From the IMG/VR virus record IMGVR_UViG_3300042308_001786: a DNA stretch of 20,000 bases. One strand, 5' to 3'. The stretch is from an uncultured virus (IMG/VR IMGVR_UViG_3300042308_001786) (Duplodnaviria; Heunggongvirae; Uroviricota; Caudoviricetes). This document shows positions 743 to 16,881 of the stretch, piece by piece (position 1 is the first letter of the stretch; every line of letters starts with the position of its first letter). The notes under the pieces are model-generated. The model was not told where the DNA came from and did no database searches. It worked only from the letters and a program-made list of their open reading frames with translations. The position numbers and the translations under genes were made by a program.

Positions 743-3700
743 ATGGCTTCCATTCTTAAGCATCTTCGTTCGTCCACTGCTAATAAGCGCCCTACTGCTT
801 CGGGGCTTGCAGACGGACAAATTGCCATCAATACTGCTTCTGGCACTCCTGCAATGTTCTTTAAGGACAGTGCAGGAAATGTAGTGAAAGTTGGCCCTGC
901 CCATGTGGGAACTAGCGCTCCCAATGCAAGTCCCGCTGGCAGCGCTGGCAATTCAACGGGCGAACTGTGGGTGGATAATAGCCTGACAACGCCTGGTCTT
1001 AATTATTACACTGGCAGCGCTTTTGTTAATCTTACGCCTTCTGGCACAACTAGCACTGTTGGTTTAGTTGAACTTGCTACTAATGCTGAAACGCAAGCTG
1101 GCAGTGACGCAGTGAGGGCCGTCACTTCTGCTGGTTTACAGAGCAAGCTTAGTGATTCAACTAGCACTACAAGCTCTACCACCATCGCTTCTTCTACTGC
1201 AGTGAAGAGCGCTTATGATCTTGCTAATGCTGCACTGCCCAAGTCTGGCGGCACTCTCACTGGAGAGCTTTTAATTAGCCCTAGTGGCAGCCTTGTTTTT
1301 GAAGGAAGTTCGGACGATAGCTTTGAAACAACAATAGCAGTGACTAATCCCACTGCTGATCGCACCATTACTTTCCCCAATGTCACTGGCACTGTAATTA
1401 CCACTGGCGATACTGGTAGTGTTACCAGCACGATGATTGCTAATGATACTATTGTCGATGCGGATATCAATGCAAGTGCTGCGATTGCTCCGAGCAAGCT
1501 TGGTTCTGGAGCATTGCCTAGTGGGGTGACAGTAGCCAGTGCCAACATTGTTGATGGCACCATTGTTAATGCGGATGTAAATGCTAGTGCCGCGATTGCT
1601 GGTACAAAAATTAGCCCTGATTTTGGCGGGCAGAATGTCGTTACTACGGGTAATGTCACTGGAGCAGCGCTGATTCCTTCTAGTAGCACTGTTCCGACAA
1701 ATGGCGTTTATTTGCCATCAGCAAATAACGTAGCCATCTCGACTAATGGCACTGGGCGGTTGTTTGTTGATGCGAGCGGAAGTGTTGGGGTTGGTGTTGG
1801 AAATCCAAATGATAAACTCCACGTTTTAGAATCGAGTGCATCAGCGGCAGCAGCTACTAGTGCTTCAGTTGCACAATTTGAGAGGGCGGGCAATGCCGCG
1901 ATCACTGTTTCTACGGCGGATAGCGGAGCAGCGTCTATTTACTTTGGAGATACAGCTTCATCAACAGTAGGTACTATTCAATACAACCACTCAGATAACT
2001 CACTGTTATTTGGCACAAATAACGCTGAACGCCTCCGCATCACATCGGACGGGAAGCTAGGTCTGGGGACTAGTGCGCCTGGCTCTTTGCTACATACCAC
2101 TGGATCCAGAGACTACACAGGCTCAACCCCTAATTACAGTTCGTACGACGTTAATTTTCAATCAGGAACTGCATCTTTAGCTATTGGTCAGTCCAATGGA
2201 ATACCAACAATTCAAGGACATGGCACAGGTACTTCTTACAACCTAGCTTTATGCCCTAACGCTGGCCGCGTAGGGATTGGCACTACGAGCCCTAGCGAAG
2301 CCCTTGAAGTGGCGGGCAATGCGATTCTGGACGCTACCGATGCAACACTAAAAATTAAAGCAGGTACCACTGGAACCACTGGCGCTCTTAACTTTACCTT
2401 TAACACAGACTCAACTGTTTATGGTGGCGTAGATCTTGCCTACGACACAAGGGCTACCGTTGGCACGCGCTTCTTCTCTGGCTATCCAATAACTATTCAG
2501 TCTGGCGCGTCAACAAACGCAATTATTTTTAAGCAAGGCAGCACTGACGAACGCGCCCGCGTCGACAGCTCCGGCAGGCTGTTAGTTGGCACGTCTACTA
2601 GCCGTACAGCAGATGGTTATGCAAGTGGACTTCAGCTTGAGGGGACTACAAATTATCAATCTGCATCAATAAGCCTTACTCATAACAGGGCCGATACTGG
2701 CGCCCCGGAGTTTAGGTTTTGCAAGTCAAGGGGGACTAGCGCCGGAGCGGTAACACTTGTCAACTCGGGAGATATTTTAGGCAGGCTTTATTTTTATGGT
2801 ACTGATGGCTCAGCAGCAATTCAAGCCGCACGTATTTCCGCCGAAGTAGACGGCACCCCTGGCACTAACGACATGCCGGGCAGGCTTGTCTTTTCGACCA
2901 CCGCCGACGGAGCGAGCAGCCCGACGGAGAGGATGAGGATTACATCAGGAGGAAACGTAGGGATTGGCACTACGAGTCCTGGCTACATCCTTGAAACCGC
3001 AGGAGACATTCGGATCAATCCCCCATCCGGAAACGCTGTATTTCGGTTTGGACGCGCTGGTTCTAACGACTGGGCAATATACAACGATACTTCAGATAAT
3101 CTTGTTTTCTACAGTGATGCTGGTGGTGCAGAACGCGCCCGCATCGACAGCTCAGGCCGCGTAGGAATCGGCACCACGAGTCCTGGAGCAAATTTAGATA
3201 TTGCAGGCGCAACTTTTGCAAACCTTTTTCTTACTGATATTGCCGCGGGTGCTAGTGCGGCTATTTATGGAGATGGAGGATCTATTGATTTAAGGGCTAA
3301 CAACAGCAGTGACAACTCTTTTCTTATTACGTCTGATTCGCACAGATTTCGGGTTTCAGGCAGTGAACGCGCACGCATCGACAGCTCCGGCAGGTTGTTA
3401 ATTGGCACGTCTAGTGCAATCAGCACCAATGGCGTAACTGCAGGCGTTGAACTACACAGCACCGCCACCAACAATGGCGCGTCACTGTCTATAGCAAGAT
3501 TTAATACCGATGCAACCGCAGGTCAGTTAATACTGGCCAAGAGCAGAAACGCGACAGTCGCCGCTGGAACGATTGTTCAAAATGGTGATGAGTTGGGGCA
3601 ATTGGTTTTCAATGGTGATGATGGCACGGATCTTGCTACTCCGGCAGCTCGTATTCAGTGTTTTGTAGACGGCACCCCCGGCCTCAACGACATGCCGGGC

Positions 3701-4105
3701 AGGCTTGTGCTGTCGGTCACCTTGGACGGTGCCTCCTCGCCCACCGAAGCTCTCCGCATCACCAACGACCGGGTGATTGCCTACAACCAGCCCGATGTCA
3801 CCAGTAAGAGCGCCGCCGCAACCCTGACGGTGGCTGAGCTGAAAACTGGCATCATTCAGTACACCGGTGCTGCTGCCACACTCACCCTCCCCACCGGAAC
3901 CCTTACCGAGGGTGGCTTCAACGGCATCTACACCAACATGACCTTTGAATGGTCTGTGATCAATACGGGCTCCGGCACCTGCACCATCGGTGCGGGCACT
4001 GGTCACACCATTGTTGGCAGCACCACTGTTGCGGCTGGCGCATCTGGTCGCTTTGCCTCACGGCGTACAGCAGCGAATACGTTCGTGACCTATCGCTTGA
4101 GTTAG
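743..4105 (+). CDS. Modular tail fibre / receptor-binding protein (1120 aa)
   Basis: N-terminal MASILKHLRSSTANKRP...GQIAIN; fibre repeat GLVELATNAETQAG...ASSTAVKSAYDLA; several ER[AML]RI[DT]SxGxVGIGTTSP repeats; two VDGTPGxNDMPGRLV modules; G/S/T/A-rich. Confidence 0.85.
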   Translation: MASILKHLRSSTANKRPTASGLADGQIAINTASGTPAMFFKDSAGNVVKVGPAHVGTSAPNASPAGSAGNSTGELWVDNSLTTPGLNYYTGSAFVNLTPSGTTSTVGLVELATNAETQAGSDAVRAVTSAGLQSKLSDSTSTTSSTTIASSTAVKSAYDLANAALPKSGGTLTGELLISPSGSLVFEGSSDDSFETTIAVTNPTADRTITFPNVTGTVITTGDTGSVTSTMIANDTIVDADINASAAIAPSKLGSGALPSGVTVASANIVDGTIVNADVNASAAIAGTKISPDFGGQNVVTTGNVTGAALIPSSSTVPTNGVYLPSANNVAISTNGTGRLFVDASGSVGVGVGNPNDKLHVLESSASAAAATSASVAQFERAGNAAITVSTADSGAASIYFGDTASSTVGTIQYNHSDNSLLFGTNNAERLRITSDGKLGLGTSAPGSLLHTTGSRDYTGSTPNYSSYDVNFQSGTASLAIGQSNGIPTIQGHGTGTSYNLALCPNAGRVGIGTTSPSEALEVAGNAILDATDATLKIKAGTTGTTGALNFTFNTDSTVYGGVDLAYDTRATVGTRFFSGYPITIQSGASTNAIIFKQGSTDERARVDSSGRLLVGTSTSRTADGYASGLQLEGTTNYQSASISLTHNRADTGAPEFRFCKSRGTSAGAVTLVNSGDILGRLYFYGTDGSAAIQAARISAEVDGTPGTNDMPGRLVFSTTADGASSPTERMRITSGGNVGIGTTSPGYILETAGDIRINPPSGNAVFRFGRAGSNDWAIYNDTSDNLVFYSDAGGAERARIDSSGRVGIGTTSPGANLDIAGATFANLFLTDIAAGASAAIYGDGGSIDLRANNSSDNSFLITSDSHRFRVSGSERARIDSSGRLLIGTSSAISTNGVTAGVELHSTATNNGASLSIARFNTDATAGQLILAKSRNATVAAGTIVQNGDELGQLVFNGDDGTDLATPAARIQCFVDGTPGLNDMPGRLVLSVTLDGASSPTEALRITNDRVIAYNQPDVTSKSAAATLTVAELKTGIIQYTGAAATLTLPTGTLTEGGFNGIYTNMTFEWSVINTGSGTCTIGAGTGHTIVGSTTVAAGASGRFASRRTAANTFVTYRLS
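2269..2976 (+). repeat. Identical 21-bp repeat pair within tail fibre (2269-2289, 2956-2976)
   Basis: CGTAGGGATTGGCACTACGAG occurs at both sites (VGIGTT linker). Confidence 0.85.
2549..3413 (+). repeat. 49-bp near-identical repeat pair (2549-2597, 3365-3413; partial third copy 3131-3153)
   Basis: GAACGCGCmCGCrTCGACAGCTCCGGCAGGyTGTTArTTGGCACGTCTA, 45/49 identical by manual alignment. Confidence 0.85.
2846..3708 (+). repeat. 44-bp near-identical repeat pair (2846-2889, 3665-3708)
   Basis: GTAGACGGCACCCCyGGCnnnAACGACATGCCGGGCAGGCTTGT, 40/44 identical. Confidence 0.85.
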
Positions 4106-6291: not shown

Positions 6292-6855
6292 ATGTCCATG
6301 ATAGAAGAATGGCGCCCCATCGTTGGTTACGAGGGGCTTTACGAGGTGAGCAGCTTCGGTCGGGTCAGGAGCCTTGACCGAGCTTCGCGAGACAAGAATG
6401 GTCTACTCAAAAGGTTTAAAGGCAAAATCCTGTCTATTTGTATCAGAAAGAACAAGTATGGACAATACGCGATGGTTGGATTACCATTAAAGGATGGTAG
6501 TAAAAATAATACGCGATATGTAGCGCATTTAGTGCTCGAAGCTTTTGGCTGTCTCCGCCCCAGCGGAATGGAGTGTTGTCATTGTGACGGTAATTCGCTC
6601 AATAATCGAATTGATAATTTGCGCTGGGATACGCCCAAGGAAAATACAAAAGACAAATATAGGCACGGCACCGTTTTGTGGGGCTCAAAGAACCACCAAG
6701 CTCGGCTCACGGAGAAGCAAGTACTAGAAATACGAGCTAAATATATTCGCTACTCAAAAACTAAATCAAATAGCAGGCAGTTGGCAGATGAATACGGGGT
6801 TGACATACAGACTATAGGGAAAATTATTAGGCGAGAACGTTGGAAGCATATTTAA
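6292..6855 (+). CDS. NUMOD4-HNH homing endonuclease with C-terminal HTH
   Basis: EEWRPIVGYEGLYEVSSFGRVRS (NUMOD4); HLVLEAF...CCHCDGNSLNNRIDNLRWDTPKEN (HNH); RQLADEYGVDIQTIGKII (HTH). Confidence 0.9.
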   Translation: MSMIEEWRPIVGYEGLYEVSSFGRVRSLDRASRDKNGLLKRFKGKILSICIRKNKYGQYAMVGLPLKDGSKNNTRYVAHLVLEAFGCLRPSGMECCHCDGNSLNNRIDNLRWDTPKENTKDKYRHGTVLWGSKNHQARLTEKQVLEIRAKYIRYSKTKSNSRQLADEYGVDIQTIGKIIRRERWKHI

Positions 6856-7790
6856 CCTTCTTGGAAAACGCTAATAAAGACAGCTCCCTTGTCTGTTAGT
6901 GGCAAAATTTTATCGCGCAAATCAATATTACGAGCACGACAACAACCCATTGTTGGCATTAGTTTTTGATTTGGAGCCCACGCGCCTGGCCACCCAAGTG
7001 CACTAGATCCGCCATGAAGCATGATCCCTGCACGCCCATTATCCCTTTCTTGCCCCTCTAGATCAATCATGTCAAAACTGTACCAGCCATAAGCCATAAG
7101 CGTACGATCATAGGCAGGTTTGTCGCCTACTCTGTCATAATCTCGATAAATCGTGCCTAGCTTGTACAGACCTGGAGGACAATCACTGTTTTGGATGCGC
7201 CATTCAAAGTCACTATATTGCCCACGAGCAAGGCAAGGGATTTCCCACAATAGTTTTCCTTCATAGGAAAAAGCTTTCATGGTTTCCACTGCATCGTTCA
7301 CAACCAAATGCGAATCGCCAGGTTTAAAGCCAAAGTCTTGAGGACGCTTCTTGGGGCCAATCATAGTAAATTGCGTGGTTTCTGGGGCATATTCTTTCAT
7401 GAGTTTAGAAAGCTTTGCAGGATAATCGGGATCCGTTGCATAGCTTTGTTCCTTGAGCATGCGTGCTGCCGCATAGCGATTAGGCGCATTGTTCACGCCC
7501 TTAAATTGACGATAATCTTTGTACCAGCGGGTTACAAGATATTCAATGCAAGCAGCAAGGCTAGGGAAATCAATAAACCCTGCCTTAATTGTCACCCATT
7601 GACCGTCGTACCATTCTTGCGTGGTAGTAGTGGTGCCACTCCCCTTTAGGCCGAACGCATTCCATTGCCCAGAAAAATGCTTGCCAAAGCCACTCTCAAG
7701 CGCCCATTGGGCTGCCACTAGTTCAGGGAATCTGGCTCCGACTCTCTTGGCATGATCTTGAACTCCTTTCCATGTGTTGGGGATTTCCAT
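6852..7790 (-). CDS. Endolysin: GH73/FlgJ-like glucosaminidase plus C-terminal YkuD/L,D-transpeptidase-like domain
   Basis: AQWALESGFG, NAFGLKG and YATDPDY (GH73 motifs); GIMLHGG...PTMGCCR (His...GC motif of the YkuD family). Confidence 0.8.
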   Translation of the reverse strand: MEIPNTWKGVQDHAKRVGARFPELVAAQWALESGFGKHFSGQWNAFGLKGSGTTTTTQEWYDGQWVTIKAGFIDFPSLAACIEYLVTRWYKDYRQFKGVNNAPNRYAAARMLKEQSYATDPDYPAKLSKLMKEYAPETTQFTMIGPKKRPQDFGFKPGDSHLVVNDAVETMKAFSYEGKLLWEIPCLARGQYSDFEWRIQNSDCPPGLYKLGTIYRDYDRVGDKPAYDRTLMAYGWYSFDMIDLEGQERDNGRAGIMLHGGSSALGWPGAWAPNQKLMPTMGCCRARNIDLRDKILPLTDKGAVFISVFQEG

Positions 7791-7819: not shown

Positions 7820-7890
7820 TGTTATGATTTTTGTGGGTCCGCGTGATTGCAGTCACCGAACCCGTGGATCACTCGCCTAATCGAGCAACC
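7820..7890 (+). promoter_or_regulatory. Putative extended -10 promoter plus structured leader of NUMOD4-HNH gene 2
   Basis: TGtTATGAT (7820-7828); hairpin GGGTcCGcGTGA-TTGCAG-TCACCGaACCC (7835-7863); then CTCG-cctaat-CGAG. Confidence 0.55.
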
Positions 7891-8448
7891 ATGGACATTA
7901 TCGCAGAAGAATGGCGCCCAGTGCCAGGCGCTGAAGGTCGTTACGAAGTTAGCAATCTTGGGCGTGTCAAAAGCCTAAGACGAGTCGTCTCTTGTGGCAT
8001 CCGACAAGGGAAACGGGCCTATCGGACTGTGCCAGAGAAAATATTAAAACCTGGACTTGACAAAGACGGCTATGCGCAAGTCTTAATAGCACAAACTGAG
8101 GGTGATAAATTTAAAAACACTAGAATTCATCAACTAGTAGCATTGGTGTTTCTTGGGCCTAAGCCAAAGGACAAATGGGTTCTGCATGGTCCCAATGGAA
8201 AAGAAGACAATAGCGTTGGAAATTTATACTATGGAACTCCCGCTCAAAATATTAAAGACAAGTGGAGGGACGGCACTATCATTATTGGCGAAAAGCATCA
8301 CAAAGCCAAACTAAAAGAGGCTGATGTTATTGAAGTTCGCGAGCTGTACGAGCAAGGCTTAACGTGCAAAGAAATCGCGGCTCGCTATAGCGTAGGCGAT
8401 ACCGCGATTGCAAAAATCATCAACAGAGAAAACTGGAAATGGCTCTAG
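7891..8448 (+). CDS. NUMOD4-HNH homing endonuclease with C-terminal HTH (185 aa)
   Basis: Start moved to ATG 7891 by alignment with the paralogue (MDIIAEEWRPVPGAEGRYEVSNLGRVKS); HQLVALVF...VLHGPNGKEDNSVGNLYYGTPAQN; KEIAARYSVGDTAIAKII HTH. Confidence 0.9.
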   Translation: MDIIAEEWRPVPGAEGRYEVSNLGRVKSLRRVVSCGIRQGKRAYRTVPEKILKPGLDKDGYAQVLIAQTEGDKFKNTRIHQLVALVFLGPKPKDKWVLHGPNGKEDNSVGNLYYGTPAQNIKDKWRDGTIIIGEKHHKAKLKEADVIEVRELYEQGLTCKEIAARYSVGDTAIAKIINRENWKWL

Positions 8449-8922: not shown

Positions 8923-9405
8923 ATGCGAAGAGCGAATGGTCCCGATGAGCTGCTTTATTCTCTCATTGAACTTCGCCCTGGAGACGCAAGACGCAGATTT
9001 CGCAAGAGCATTTTTGAAGACTATCCGCTACGTGGTCCTCTTGGACAATGCGCCTGTGCATATTGCGGGCGATGGGATCAAAAGCTAACGATTGACCATA
9101 TTGTGCCTAAAAGCAAGGGTGGGCCTCATTTTGCAAAATATAATTTAGTGCCAAGTTGTCAAGCGTGTAATTTACTAAAAGGAGCTGAGCCTATTTTTGA
9201 ATGGTGGCGTCCACAGCGTTTCTGGACTGAGAAGCGAGAAGAGCTTCTTCTTGCATGGGTGCATCACAATAGCTTTGTTAGCGCCCACACTTCTTTGCAG
9301 GATATTGAAGCATTCGCAGAGGAGCGTGATTATTACATTCCACCGTCAAAAGAAGAAGCCCCCATTTCTGGGGGCTTTTGTTATACAGAATGGCAGGCAG
9401 CTTAG
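8923..9405 (+). CDS. Zn-finger HNH endonuclease (McrA/HNH_5-like)
   Basis: CAYCG...LTIDHIVPKSKGG...NLVPSCQACNLLKG. Confidence 0.88.
   Translation: MRRANGPDELLYSLIELRPGDARRRFRKSIFEDYPLRGPLGQCACAYCGRWDQKLTIDHIVPKSKGGPHFAKYNLVPSCQACNLLKGAEPIFEWWRPQRFWTEKREELLLAWVHHNSFVSAHTSLQDIEAFAEERDYYIPPSKEEAPISGGFCYTEWQAA
9346..9378 (-). terminator. Terminator for the - strand operon, embedded in the HNH 3' end (possibly bidirectional)
   Basis: Stem GAAGCCCCCA-tttc-TGGGGGCTTT at 9355-9378, with T-rich tails on both strands. Confidence 0.65.
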
Positions 9406-13123: not shown

Positions 13124-14155
13124 TCAAGCTCCGCGGTCCATAGAAATGGTTAAGGCATGGGAATAATATGATTACTCTTGCCAGCGTTGCACTCACGGCA
13201 TAGCACTTGCAGGTTTGCCGCATCGTTTGTGCCGCCTTTGGACACGGGGTGAATATGGTCAATCTCAAGGACTGCCCCATTCGACCTAGATGCGCCACAC
13301 ATTTGGCAAGTGTATTTGTCTCGGACCAGTATTGCCACGCGATCTTTGGGTTTAATCGCAGACCTTTTGATTGGATTATTTAAACGACGGGCATTTTTGT
13401 TGTATGCGATATGACTCAATAGTGCCCATGGTGGTCCCCACTCGCATTGTGTTGCCATTTGGGCTGCAAACCAAAAATCATTGCGTTTTGTCTGCTCCAT
13501 CCAAGCAAAGTCGTGCCCACTTTCTTTATGCTCTTCGTATTCATCCCTTGCGTCCTTCAAGCGATCATCAAAGACTATATAAATTGGGACGCCAAGTGCG
13601 TATGCATAGCCGATTTCAGCCAACGTTCCATAGCAATCTGGTGAATCTATAAATGCATACAATGCGTCACATGTACGAATTTGGTACATGCAACGCTCTA
13701 ACACCTGTGACCTTGAAAGTCCATTCTCGCCGTCAGGACAACTTGTCTCTTGCTGAATTGCGTATAAATATTCGCGGCCATGGACCGGCACATCGTGAAG
13801 CCTTTCCCTTGAAGAGCCAAATAATGTTTGATCTTGCGCAAAAGGATTGTTAATGCCATGATTGCTTTTATGCCAGCATCCATGGTCGCACGACAATGCG
13901 CTCGGTCCTCCATAGCGCACTGTTCCCAAATCATATAGATCTAGCGGATTATCGTAGACAGAATGCTCTGATCCTATCGCCCTAGACATAATGCGATCAT
14001 CCTGGAACAGACTTCTCCTGTAATCACTGCTTCCTTTGCGAACCTTTCCAGCAAAATAAACCAAGAGTGGCTCAAGCAAATTCCGCTGATTTGCGGAGTT
14101 AAAGGTGTGTTCAATGGCCACAATCAAGCTCCACGGTCCATGGAAATGGTTAAGG
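13124..14155. mobile_element. 1000-bp inserted cassette bounded by 32-bp direct repeats (13124-13155, 14124-14155)
   Basis: TCAAGCTCCrCGGTCCATrGAAATGGTTAAGG, 30/32 identical; the repeat is the 3' end of the exonuclease gene. Confidence 0.8.
13150..14127 (-). CDS. Nucleoside 2-deoxyribosyltransferase-like (NDT/RCL fold) domain fused to C-terminal Zn-HNH endonuclease
   Basis: VYFAGK; IRTCDALYAFIDSPDCYGTLAEIGYAYALGVPIYIV (NDT GTxxE motif); RDKYTCQMCG...LEIDHIHPVSKGGTNDAANLQVLCRECNAGKS. Start is TTG 14127 or GTG 14121. Confidence 0.8.
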   Translation of the reverse strand: MIVAIEHTFNSANQRNLLEPLLVYFAGKVRKGSSDYRRSLFQDDRIMSRAIGSEHSVYDNPLDLYDLGTVRYGGPSALSCDHGCWHKSNHGINNPFAQDQTLFGSSRERLHDVPVHGREYLYAIQQETSCPDGENGLSRSQVLERCMYQIRTCDALYAFIDSPDCYGTLAEIGYAYALGVPIYIVFDDRLKDARDEYEEHKESGHDFAWMEQTKRNDFWFAAQMATQCEWGPPWALLSHIAYNKNARRLNNPIKRSAIKPKDRVAILVRDKYTCQMCGASRSNGAVLEIDHIHPVSKGGTNDAANLQVLCRECNAGKSNHIIPMP

Positions 14156-14924
14156 GGCGTCCGCCTGGGTAGTACTCGAAAAAGTACTGTTGCGTCTTCT
14201 GAGCCATGATCCCTGCCTGCATGGCAAGATCGGTGCCGTCAAGGCTCACGATTTGAGCCTCCTGTCCTTTGCCCGTATCGGGATCGTAAATGGCGATAGC
14301 GCAATGCGCCTCGTTGATTTCGATGCCATACATCTGCTCAATGGCTTGGGAATAAGCTCCGAGCTGCATGCGATAGTCGCCTAACTGCGTATCAGGCTTT
14401 TGTTTGTAGCTTGTCTTCCAATCAAGCAGGGCGATATTGCCGTTGCCCATGGTCGCAAGCATGTCAAATGTGCCTGAGTAGCCAGTTTCAGTGGAGGGGC
14501 AATACCAAGCGATGGCACTTTCCACTAAGAGGGGGCTAGCCACGCCAGTGAGGAAGTTGGCAATGCTGTCGAAATAAGGAACGAACAATGGATGGGAATC
14601 AAGGTGACAGTTGATGTCCTCGCCGTTCCAGAAATCCTCTAGCACGCCATGAAGCCAATTACCACGTTCTACAGCAGAGCGTGTGCGACGATTAGCTTCC
14701 TCATCGCCTACTTTCTTGCGCCAGTTCATGAGCGCTGCAATCTTGCCAGGCGGCGAACACGCGCTCGCAATAGTCGTCACAGAGGGCAAAACAATGCCTT
14801 CTGGGGCATTTGGAAAACCGTTCAAAACGTAATTCCGCTTGCCGTTCAAGGAGATTCGGTTGGGTTCGTAGCGGGCGAGAGAAGGCATCGAAAGAGCGTC
14901 GAGACATAGATCGTAACAGGGCAC
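14124..14924 (-). CDS. PD-(D/E)XK exonuclease (lambda-exo/RecB/Cas4-like phage family)
   Basis: LPSVTTI, LMNWRKKVG, RGNWLH, VES, YSGTFDML, LLDWKTS, QLGAY; alternative start ATG 14888. Confidence 0.85.
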   Translation of the reverse strand: MPCYDLCLDALSMPSLARYEPNRISLNGKRNYVLNGFPNAPEGIVLPSVTTIASACSPPGKIAALMNWRKKVGDEEANRRTRSAVERGNWLHGVLEDFWNGEDINCHLDSHPLFVPYFDSIANFLTGVASPLLVESAIAWYCPSTETGYSGTFDMLATMGNGNIALLDWKTSYKQKPDTQLGDYRMQLGAYSQAIEQMYGIEINEAHCAIAIYDPDTGKGQEAQIVSLDGTDLAMQAGIMAQKTQQYFFEYYPGGRPLTISMDRGA

Positions 14925-15247
14925 TATTTCTCATTCATGTCCCAGAAATACTCGCAGCCTTCTTCCGTATAAGGCGGCGTTGCAAAATAACTTTGGAAGC
15001 GATCAGAGGGCGCCATGTAACGCCAGCAATCTTCCTTGACAGGGCATTTGTCGCCCGTACACATTGCAATATCAGGCATGAGAATAGTTCGTGCAGTTTG
15101 ATAAAGGAAAGTGCGATCAGCCAGAGGATGTTCAGCAATAGCGTGGAGAACAGCAGCAATACGACGGTCGCTGCTAAGCGTATCGTCAGGAAAGCTCCAG
15201 AATGCTTCATGGCAAGCATCAATCAGCGTCCGTCTGTTTGTCAACAT
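14924..15247 (-). CDS. Hypothetical protein with C-terminal 4-Cys module
   Basis: MPDIAMCTGDKCPVKEDCWRY...QSYF...CEYFW. Confidence 0.65.
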   Translation of the reverse strand: MLTNRRTLIDACHEAFWSFPDDTLSSDRRIAAVLHAIAEHPLADRTFLYQTARTILMPDIAMCTGDKCPVKEDCWRYMAPSDRFQSYFATPPYTEEGCEYFWDMNEK

Positions 15248-15470
15248 CTTTCAGCAAGTCTGCAAATTCTTCTGCTTGTGCATTGAAGGCGTCAACAATG
15301 AGAGAGCGCGAATAACCACAGCCCATTAAATAACAGGCAAAGTCCTCGACAACTTCGTATATGGTTGCCTTGTAGCTCACCACTTCAATGTCAAAACTTG
15401 GGTCGCCATAGCGATTAGTTATTGAATGCTTCCATGAATGTTTCCATGGAGAAAGAGAAGAATCGTTCAT
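15219..15470 (-). CDS. Hypothetical protein (83 aa)
   Basis: In operon, overlapping its neighbours. Confidence 0.6.
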   Translation of the reverse strand: MNDSSLSPWKHSWKHSITNRYGDPSFDIEVVSYKATIYEVVEDFACYLMGCGYSRSLIVDAFNAQAEEFADLLKDVDKQTDAD

Positions 15471-15607
15471 GGTAGAACTAAGCTTGCAAGGAACAAAATG
15501 AGCAAGGCCAGAGCTGTAGAAGCAAAAGCAACTAGCAGGAACAAGCCAAGAGGATCGTCAGCTAAAGAGGCTGGAAGGAATGCAATTAATAGGGGCATTG
15601 TCTTCAT
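15467..15607 (-). CDS. Small hydrophobic membrane protein (46 aa)
   Basis: Not in the ORF track. MKTMPLLIAFLPASLADDPLGLFLLVAFASTALALLILFLASLVLP; ATGA coupling to the next gene. Confidence 0.5.
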   Translation of the reverse strand: MKTMPLLIAFLPASLADDPLGLFLLVAFASTALALLILFLASLVLP

Positions 15608-15621
15608 CAAGGCAAATGGTT

Positions 15622-15671
15622 CCAGCAAAGGCCCGCGCAAAGCGGGCCGCTGCTAGATCTATGGCTTTTTT
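15622..15671 (-). promoter_or_regulatory. Candidate -1 programmed frameshift signal (A_AAA_AAG, 8-nt spacer, stem-loop)
   Basis: Minus strand GCA AAA AAG CCA TAG; hairpin CTAGCAGCGGCCCGC-TTTGC-GCGGGCCTTTGCTGG (15656-15622). Confidence 0.55.
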
Positions 15672-16621
15672 GCAACGAAAGCTTTCATTGCTTCAACCAT
15701 TGTTTCCGTTGTATCGCAGGCGCGAACAAGATCAATTTCCTTAGTCATCTCTGTTTTAGTAATAACCATTTGCTCTTCCTTTGCCCAGACAGTCATCATG
15801 GCTGCTGCCACATTGCCAAACTGCTGCCATGTTTTCACTTCAGTGGCGCGAGACAGGCCGATAGCTTCCAGCGCAGCCTTACCAAGAGCCATGCTGTTCT
15901 TCTCATCGGCATAACCAAATGGATTGGCTTTGCAAATGGTGGTCAGGGCAGTTTTGGCATCAAATGCTTCATCACTGGTCCCTGTCGCAGCGGTGGGAGC
16001 ATTCCCTCCTTCTCCAGCAGGCTCAGAAGGAGCTTTAGCTCCCGTTGGCGCCTTGCTTGCCCGCGTAGTTTGCTTCGGAGCTTCCTGTTGGAGCGGGAGT
16101 TTGGGCGTTCCTTTTTCATCTTCTTTAGGGATGTCTTCACCTGCATAGAGACGCAGGCCAAGACCAGTGAAAGTGGCAATAGCCTTTACAGCAGCACGCT
16201 GGCAGTTGTCAGAGATGGCACGACCATCAAGCTCCTTAATGGAATTATGCTTCCTGTCCATGATCGGGAAGATCAAGGCAACAGTACGGCGGCAGCCATC
16301 AGTGAGGTAGGGGCGGAGATAGTAAGCGCCTGGTGTGCCAAACACCACTTCCCCAACGGTCTTCTCTTCAAAGGCTACAAAATACGTAGGGAAATGCTCC
16401 TTCAAATAGCGATAGGCAAAGGGCCAGGACAGATAAGACAAGCCCTTGTAGTCCTTCTCGATGTGAGGCCCGATGTCAGGCGTATCGTAAGCAGCCTTGA
16501 AGGCTTCAGCGCTGATCTCCAGAGGAGAGAAGATGCCGTTGTAACGGTCCATTGCGGCTTGTTTGGCAGGGTCCATGGAAGAAAAATCAGACGGGGAATA
16601 GAGCATAAAAGAATGGTTCAC
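15659..16621 (-). CDS. Sak3-like / DUF1071 single-strand annealing protein (Rad52-like) with C-terminal extension
   Basis: IEKDYKGLSYLSWPFAY, FPIMDRKHNSI, ISDNCQRAAVKAIA..GLGLRLYAGEDIP; then a Pro/Ala linker and a helical domain. Confidence 0.85.
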   Translation of the reverse strand: MNHSFMLYSPSDFSSMDPAKQAAMDRYNGIFSPLEISAEAFKAAYDTPDIGPHIEKDYKGLSYLSWPFAYRYLKEHFPTYFVAFEEKTVGEVVFGTPGAYYLRPYLTDGCRRTVALIFPIMDRKHNSIKELDGRAISDNCQRAAVKAIATFTGLGLRLYAGEDIPKEDEKGTPKLPLQQEAPKQTTRASKAPTGAKAPSEPAGEGGNAPTAATGTSDEAFDAKTALTTICKANPFGYADEKNSMALGKAALEAIGLSRATEVKTWQQFGNVAAAMMTVWAKEEQMVITKTEMTKEIDLVRACDTTETMVEAMKAFVAKKP

Positions 16622-16881
16622 TGTTTCGACTGCGGCATGCTCATGTATTCGCCATACATAATGACGAAATGCGTTGTCATTTCAGAGCCTTCGTTCTTGG
16701 TGATGATGCTCTTACCAGGAAGAGGCCAATCTGCAACTGCACGAATGTCAGTGGGAAGCTCATAGTATTTAGGATCGAAGCCTTCATCAATGGCTCCTTG
16801 TTCCCATAGAAGCCTCACTTCCTGATCACCATGGTCAAGAAGAAATTCTTCGCAAGCAAGTTTAAGCTGGGAAACTTTCAT
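16618..16881 (-). CDS. Hypothetical protein (MKVSQL...GDQEV type)
   Basis: ATG 16881; overlaps the start of the Sak3 gene. Confidence 0.65.
   Translation of the reverse strand: MKVSQLKLACEEFLLDHGDQEVRLLWEQGAIDEGFDPKYYELPTDIRAVADWPLPGKSIITKNEGSEMTTHFVIMYGEYMSMPQSKQ

Follow-up and report, generated by a model that had tools for sequence, protein, structure and literature searches.

Does the annealase gene of an uncultured tailed virus encode a second, longer protein that a fraction of its ribosomes would reach by slipping one base back just before the stop codon? The question arises at the 3' end of a gene lying in a 20,000-nucleotide stretch of viral DNA (IMG/VR record IMGVR_UViG_3300042308_001786), the whole of which is called the window here. 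In tailed phages, the programmed frameshifts described so far come mainly from genes for tail chaperones and capsid proteins. An earlier reading of the window, made from its letters alone and referred to below as the sequence-only reading, had proposed two annealase isoforms with different C termini produced by a -1 frameshift; the heptamer, the covariation of the downstream stem and the coding signal of the -1 frame now lend that proposal support. We regard it as highly probable that this 3' end of a phage Sak3-family gene carries a programmed -1 ribosomal frameshift site. The signal is of the canonical -1 kind, combining a slippery heptamer, a covarying structure and a selected -1 frame that can be reached by a shift only.

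The gene and its surroundings

The window is a phage segment. It holds a tail fibre gene and genes for virion proteins, an endolysin, a thymidylate synthase, a dCTP deaminase, several HNH endonucleases and a PD-(D/E)XK exonuclease, and its primase/helicase-like gene is divergent. Three HNH endonuclease genes lie on the plus strand (6292-6855, 7831-8448 and 8923-9405), and two of the three are phrog_1492 paralogues that flank the oppositely oriented endolysin gene at 6852-7790. Two genes concern us here:

15659..16621, minus strand: sak, encoding a Sak3/DUF1071 single-strand annealing protein of 320 amino acids, with a GTG start and a TAG stop
14124..14924, minus strand: PD-(D/E)XK exonuclease gene, downstream of sak in the same operon (PF12705; phrog_298, E 6.6e-43)

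The protein matches PF06378 (SSAP_Sak) over residues 50-170, above the gathering score, with 59.9 bits against a cut-off of 22.3, as well as the 'Sak-like ssDNA annealing protein' family phrog_8492 (E 2.1e-56), and its N-terminal domain matches 80alpha Sak (PDB 8qe9) in a phmmer search (E 6.8e-7). PF06378 is the family known as Sak3 or DUF1071, according to the available part of the single-strand annealing protein survey (PMC8093625), and the name Sak3 that the gene had been given from its sequence therefore fits. The nearest named phage is the Synechococcus siphovirus S-CBS4, with 67% identity in Sak. An AlphaFold (AF2) model built from a 53-row alignment, with a mean pLDDT of 70.8, has an N-terminal domain of mixed confidence, a disordered linker (163-217) and a C-terminal domain (222-317) of five helices at a pLDDT of about 90, the last of which finishes at the slip site. 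The top Foldseek matches of the model are 80alpha Sak (8qe9, 8pq8) and Mgm101, all of them weak (E 5.8e-3 to 1, TM 0.24-0.55), and the same search gave no significant fold match for the C-terminal domain.

The exonuclease, whose homologues are called genome maintenance exonuclease 1 in one source, is likely to be the functional partner of Sak. Directly downstream of it, a minus-strand gene at 13150-14127 encodes a nucleoside 2-deoxyribosyltransferase-like domain (PF05014) fused to a C-terminal HNH endonuclease domain. Relatives of sak also occur in an RNA library: contigs of an aquatic metatranscriptome (run X18) are about 91% identical to the window over sak, covering 15794-16670 only, with the slip site outside; they record presence only and have no bearing on transcription or slippage.

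Slip site and predicted products

On the minus strand the sak frame ends ...GTT GCA AAA AAG CCA TAG, and around this end lie the following features:

15665..15671, minus strand: slippery heptamer A_AAA_AAG, in phase, with AAA as the P-site codon and AAG as the A-site codon
15653..15661, minus strand: 0-frame stops, namely TAG (15661-15659), then ATC and a second in-frame TAG (15655-15653)
15558..15665, minus strand: -1 frame extension of 35 codons (15665-15561) followed by TGA (15560-15558)
15621..15657, minus strand: predicted stimulatory hairpin of 8 + 7 = 15 bp with a 1x1 mismatch, two G-U pairs and a 5-nt loop

The first A of the heptamer is the third base of the GCA codon, which places A_AAA_AAG in the correct phase. 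Read from GCC at 15665-15663, the -1 frame would yield the 35-codon product AIDLAAARFARAFAGTICLDEDNAPINCIPSSLFS, so that an unshifted protein of 320 amino acids would be accompanied by a shifted one of 319 + 35 = 354. Most of what the sequence-only reading had reported of this site was right: the in-phase heptamer (15671-15665) one codon (CCA) ahead of the TAG, the -1 frame open for 35 codons up to the stop at 15560-15558, and the sizes of 354 and 320 amino acids. Its hairpin stood as to the 15 bp, the one mismatch and the two G-U pairs, and needed correction at the edges, the spacer being 7 nt instead of 8 and the stem running from 15657 to 15621 instead of from 15656 to 15622. The sequence of the slip site is reproduced with 0 differences by a contig from an independent DNA run.

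Readthrough of the stop codon was considered as another route to an extended protein and was rejected, since a second 0-frame TAG follows two codons on and the frame that is conserved is the -1 frame.

Conservation of the heptamer

Two scans of viral contigs, one genome scan and the S-CBS4 record together gave 141 loci including the window, with two that run off their contigs (L010 and L020) excluded and L062-L070 outside the separate analysis. The 141 loci reduce to 113 distinct 430-nt sequences in which Sak identity falls to about 49%. An in-phase X_XXY_YYZ heptamer is present in every one of the 113, 72 carrying A_AAA_AAG and 41 G_GGA_AAG, although the loci share descent and counts over the 113 or the 141 are of non-independent events. 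The conservation of the heptamer in homologous genes, which had been put forward as a check, thus holds throughout the set. The A-site codon is AAG in all 113, and the 0-frame stop follows the heptamer after 0 codons in 41 and after 1 codon in 72. The same arrangement is present, unannotated, in the isolate phage S-CBS4.

The codon ahead of XXY shows that the constraint acts on nucleotides. It encodes any of nine amino acids (A, Q, S, E, G, R, V, T and K), yet its third base equals X in 113/113 sequences, A before AAA_AAG and G before GGA_AAG, and a third base fixed across nine amino acids indicates selection at the nucleotide level, beyond what the protein can explain. A FastTree phylogeny was made from 108 Sak sequences, with the slip-site residues trimmed and five sequences with <280 aa of sak frame dropped; on this tree the heptamer changes type at least 7 times without ever being lost, and well-supported branches require at least 3 of these changes.

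The only match in 185,579 species genomes (L151, NYTN01000042.1) is a 20.5-kb contig of a metagenome-assembled genome labelled Rhodobiaceae. Since an IMG/VR viral contig (L050) equals it in length and range, the assembly has probably picked up a phage contig during binning.

The downstream hairpin

In the window, the 81-nt stretch that holds the hairpin folds at -32.1 kcal/mol, against -21.1 +/- 2.7 kcal/mol for 200 dinucleotide shuffles (z -4.04), and 0/200 shuffles fold as well. The pairing of the stem is maintained among relatives: across 41 distinct sequences of a first set, 90.4% of cells are standard pairs, compared with 36-53% when the 3' arm is slid. Compensatory changes occur in 8/15 pairs, and 0/500 shuffles match the covariation observed in these 41 sequences, so the stem passes the covariation check that had been suggested for it. 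Covariation was taken from explicit pair counts; an RNAalifold consensus of the same region (alignment A1) gave a partial stem, with five outlier rows breaking it. Some of the compensatory changes are synonymous in the -1 frame, which indicates that constraints on RNA and on protein coexist here.

Over the whole set, folding of the 55 nt that follow the heptamer gives -15 kcal/mol or less in 106/113 sequences and z <= -2 against windows of the same sak gene in 97/113. The free energy lies above -15 kcal/mol in 7/113, and a convincing stem is absent in L054-L057, L025, L050, L104 and L143. The fold z is near 0 in the L054-L057 group and in L025, and the weakest downstream structure among the 113 is that of L104 (-7.2 kcal/mol).

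The element has no family of its own in Rfam, where a search of the site at E up to 1 returned no frameshift element and noise only (RsmY, E 0.09). It is also absent from the 4 terminator-like sites found by a simple scan, and its tail, UUUGCUGG, has only three U. The fallback offered by the sequence-only reading, that the hairpin is a weak terminator, thus goes unsupported.

The -1 frame as coding sequence

Several measures indicate that the peptide encoded by the -1 frame is under selection. The frame is open for 23-43 codons in 113/113 sequences, and the predicted tails share the core [IV]-D-L-A-A-A-R-L-A-R-A-F-A-G-x-[IV]-x-x-[DN]-x-D-G-x-P-[LF], or in short form DLAAARLARAFAG..D.DG.P[LF]. 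Substitutions are three-periodic in the -1 frame and the periodicity reaches past the stem; entropy at the codon positions of that frame is 0.65/0.34/1.09 (38 unique segments). The 39 unique segments of the first set give a pN/pS of 0.44 for the -1 frame, with the other two frames at 0.96 and 1.51. In the whole set, represented by 94 unique segments from 109/113 sequences once the four without an F-x-G anchor were dropped, the -1 frame has 0.46 and the others 1.04 and 1.56. The proposed check of -1 frame coding in homologues thus gives 0.44-0.46 against about 1 and 1.5, in favour of coding.

Purifying selection at the protein level covers the first 17-19 tail codons, also in S-CBS4, L017 and L043, where the small membrane-protein ORF described below is missing, and the tail peptide is kept where the sequence of the hairpin varies (L025, L054-L057). 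In the clade of the window, the last 12 tail codons show no constraint in the tail frame (ratio 1.36). The functional core of the putative tail is its first 23-25 residues. Modelled alone with AF2 (pLDDT 75.8), the tail forms a helix at residues 2-13 and then a turn, a prediction in which the helix (IDLAAARFARAFAG) would be amphipathic and the turn (..C.D.D..P[LI]) acidic.

How such a peptide could be translated is narrowed by the absence of start codons. In 52/60 first-set loci no ATG, GTG or TTG occurs in the -1 frame from the last upstream -1 stop to the slip site, and in L043, L047 and L052 that stop lies just 3 codons upstream of it; with no start codon upstream, the conserved peptide is reachable only through the sak frame.

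In L104 (2133-2243) an 8-residue insertion (INETVPY.) separates the slip site from the tail core. The S-CBS4 record (L061, NC_016766) has an annotation gap after gp079, at about 3437-3790, that is filled only by a 31-aa minus-strand ORF, gp078. The plus strand of this gap carries the unannotated candidate frameshift tail and an 87-aa ORF (MDHLSAHPHKWNH...) homologous to the window gene at 15219-15470.

The overlapped membrane-protein ORF

The extension runs into another reading frame, whose existence had already been pointed out:

15467..15607, minus strand: small membrane-protein ORF in the sak 0 frame, 46 amino acids from ATG

This ORF overlaps the last 16 extension codons, and its own stop shares the sequence ATGA with the start codon of the gene that follows. 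A motif DP[LFI]G[LIVM]F followed by a hydrophobic segment identifies it in 42/113 sequences, all with the A_AAA_AAG heptamer, and its pN/pS in its own frame is 0.46, a signature of selection by which we judge that it is a real gene. It would encode a conserved single-pass membrane protein of 43-49 aa, M..LL.FLP..LA[DN]DPLGLFLL plus a hydrophobic segment, and matched no Pfam or PHROG family. Over 12 codons of overlap, the membrane ORF frame is constrained (0.60) and the tail frame is not (1.36), so the tail ending 'P..LF' in the clade of the window is best read as a by-product of the membrane ORF.

Control of the translation of this ORF had been suggested as a purpose of the shift. At most it would be a secondary one: the ORF is found in 42/113 sequences and the shift site and tail in 113/113, and because 71/113 keep slip site and tail without the ORF, its control cannot be the main purpose.

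Fused and distant versions

A search for Sak protein homologues at E up to 1e-5 returned 637, of which 120 were listed. Each of the 120 stops at KK or within 2 residues after it, and the tail is absent from every one of these protein records; no in-frame fusion of Sak and tail was found among them, none having D[LIV]AAA and none exceeding 325 aa.

A profile of 95 tails searched against 1.84 billion representatives gave 30 matches at E up to 0.001. Fourteen of these were examined, 10 being tiny ORFs of 30-63 aa that are the tail itself and 4 being repeat proteins; the other 16 are proteins of 1169-5913 aa, each with 3-23 short matched stretches. A DnaX-like single match is absent from the 30, and an ESM Atlas search with the tail gave no usable match. 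Against longer proteins, the tail profile matched one, P0121 (214 aa), of which only the last 52-54 residues match viral contigs. Those residues are the tail of the G_GGA_AAG clade, and the first 160 match none of the viral loci; P0121 could be a gene-call artefact running through the open -1 frame, or the same tail on another protein.

Beyond close relatives, three distant DUF1071 genes were checked, from phages of Vibrio, Staphylococcus and Weissella. None has a shift site of this kind together with an open -1 frame, and their proteins, at about 206-216 aa, are without the long C-terminal domain. Judged by these comparisons, the arrangement is confined to an S-CBS4-like clade of cyanophage-like viruses, within which it appears obligatory.

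Alternative explanations

One alternative accepts the frameshift and makes it regulatory, with shifted ribosomes melting the hairpin and crossing the start of the membrane ORF, or coupling downstream translation, and the peptide being incidental. Such a role would suit the position of the site, since the membrane ORF has its ATG (15607) immediately 3' of the hairpin and the -1 ORF reaches 50 nt into it before stopping, and it would suit the unconstrained state of the last 12 tail codons. However, the membrane ORF is limited to 42 of the 113 sequences that all have slip site and tail, and the first 17-19 tail codons are under purifying selection even in loci that lack the ORF (S-CBS4, L017, L043); we consider a purely regulatory shift unlikely. 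Transcriptional slippage, in which RNA polymerase would add one A in the A6 run and ribosomes would not slip at all, draws on the fact that A-runs are known slippage sites and that A6 is present in 72/113 sequences; Thermus dnaX uses A9 in this way, as stated in the available part of PMC3711429. The threshold given there, again in the portion available, is a homopolymer of A or T with n > 7 (PMC3711429), and A6 falls below it. The G_GGA_AAG heptamer of the remaining 41/113 has runs of at most 3 bases and shares only tandem tRNA re-pairing with A_AAA_AAG, which disfavours transcriptional slippage as the common mechanism. In addition, the third base of the preceding codon equals X in both heptamer types, and the conserved hairpin lies at 5-8 nt, a spacing past the heptamer that is a hallmark of ribosomal shifting. 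Polymerase slippage in place of ribosomal slippage is accordingly very unlikely.

The two remaining alternatives dispense with recoding. The site might be an RNA element only, be it a terminator, a processing site or an mRNA stabiliser, with the heptamer arising by chance from a C-terminal Lys-Lys, and a GC-rich hairpin right after a stop codon, followed by UUU, does have that appearance. Such an element would not explain three-periodic -1 frame substitutions beyond the stem, a peptide kept where the stem is not (L025, L054-L057), a -1 frame interrupted in 0/113 relatives, or a third base ahead of Lys-Lys or Gly-Lys that stays constrained over 9 amino acids; nor does the site look like a terminator in the scan or belong to an Rfam family, and the downstream genes are tightly packed on the same strand. 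We therefore give this explanation very little credence. Equally remote is the idea that the -1 ORF is translated independently, as a small gene from a start of its own, or that sak is a frameshifted pseudogene or an assembly error. In some contigs gene callers do report a tiny ORF for the tail, as with 10 of the 30 profile matches (30-63 aa), and some start codon lies upstream in the -1 frame in 8/60 loci; against this, 52/60 have none, and conservation of the peptide starts at the slip site itself. A pseudogene or an assembly error is hard to reconcile with 113 distinct sequences from many samples plus an isolate genome, and with an independent contig showing 0 differences.

Proposed mechanism and possible role of the tail

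A programmed -1 ribosomal frameshift, the reading we prefer, would work as follows. A ribosome at A_AAA_AAG would hold tRNAs on AAA in the P site and AAG in the A site, while the 15-bp hairpin 7 nt downstream, at the mRNA entrance, would resist unwinding. In a fraction of ribosomes both tRNAs would then re-pair one base back, on AAA AAA, and the -1 frame would be read for 35 codons; across the family, the same tandem slippage would have AAA or GGA together with AAG re-pair as AAA or GGG together with AAA. The majority of ribosomes would read CCA and stop at TAG, making a short form of 320 aa (Sak-S), and those that shift would make a long form of 354 aa (Sak-L) with the conserved tail. Both the occurrence of shifting and its rate are inferred.

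What the tail might do is suggested by analogy. The C-terminal domain of the lambda annealase Red-beta binds lambda Exo and SSB, as reported in the available parts of PMC6393309 and PMC5052646, and from this parallel we infer that the tail may act in docking or assembly, being present on a fixed minority of the subunits in a Sak oligomer. It could then offer a point of attachment to a partner, for example the exonuclease encoded nearby or one of the host's replication or SSB proteins. A specific version, in which the tail docks the Sak ring to the phage exonuclease, to host SSB or, through mimicry of the DnaX C terminus, to the host polymerase, is possible but tentative, and we would sooner expect it to be wrong than right. 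Were a docking role true, phages without their own polymerase would be using recoding to fix the stoichiometry of the coupling between annealing and DNA synthesis.

Significance and relation to known systems

In the literature searched, no frameshift in an annealase gene is described, although supplementary tables might list such a cluster. The available part of the Atkins 2016 recoding review has no mention of an annealing protein, RecT, Rad52, cyanophage or recombinase; the PRFect paper contains none of 'recombin', 'annealing' and 'Sak', Antonov 2013 neither 'annealing' nor DUF1071, and the part available of the annealing protein survey (PMC8093625) does not contain 'frameshift'. A deeply conserved frameshift in a recombination gene would widen the range of processes known to use recoding and would give annealases a second isoform that annotation pipelines have missed. 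It would also single out a short conserved peptide as a possible interaction motif, with implications for the coupling of annealases to exonucleases and to the host's replication proteins and for the choice or engineering of recombineering proteins for cyanobacteria. Both S-CBS4 and its host are cultured, which opens the case to direct testing.

Among known systems, one similar in outline is E. coli dnaX, whose tau and gamma products likewise depend on A_AAA_AAG and a downstream hairpin to give a protein of DNA metabolism in two isoforms that differ at the C terminus (PMC3711429, in the part available). The shift in dnaX truncates the protein, giving gamma, whereas here the 0 frame stops and the shift would add 23-43 aa; an upstream Shine-Dalgarno-like stimulator is a further feature of dnaX, and the gene families are unrelated. 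By inspection of the window, no GGAG-like Shine-Dalgarno motif lies in the 20 nt 5' of the heptamer. Like the lambda G/GT shift, the one proposed here is a -1 event near the 3' end of a phage gene with a minor extended and a major short product, and G_GGA_AAG, used by 41/113 relatives, is the lambda G/GT heptamer. It departs from lambda G/GT in lying in a recombination gene, in adding a short peptide instead of a whole domain and in having a strong conserved hairpin. In IS3-family elements, A_AAA_AAG and a 3' stem-loop give OrfA and OrfAB, a fusion product with added function. The heptamer and stem-loop are shared with the site described here, but IS3-family shifting joins two long ORFs where this one would add a short tail, and sak is no mobile-element transposase.

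For the tail only, lambda Red-beta offers a model, being an annealase whose C-terminal part serves partner binding and not annealing (PMC6393309, PMC5052646, both in the parts available), although there is no sequence or fold match and Red-beta is a single isoform made without recoding. With 80alpha Sak (8qe9, 8pq8) and other Sak3/DUF1071 proteins, the protein has its N-terminal annealase domain in common. It differs from the products of the checked Vibrio, Staphylococcus and Weissella phage DUF1071 genes in having a long C-terminal domain and the shift site. Set beside these systems, the site is well supported by its sequence features as a known mechanism in a gene family new to it, that of a phage recombinase.
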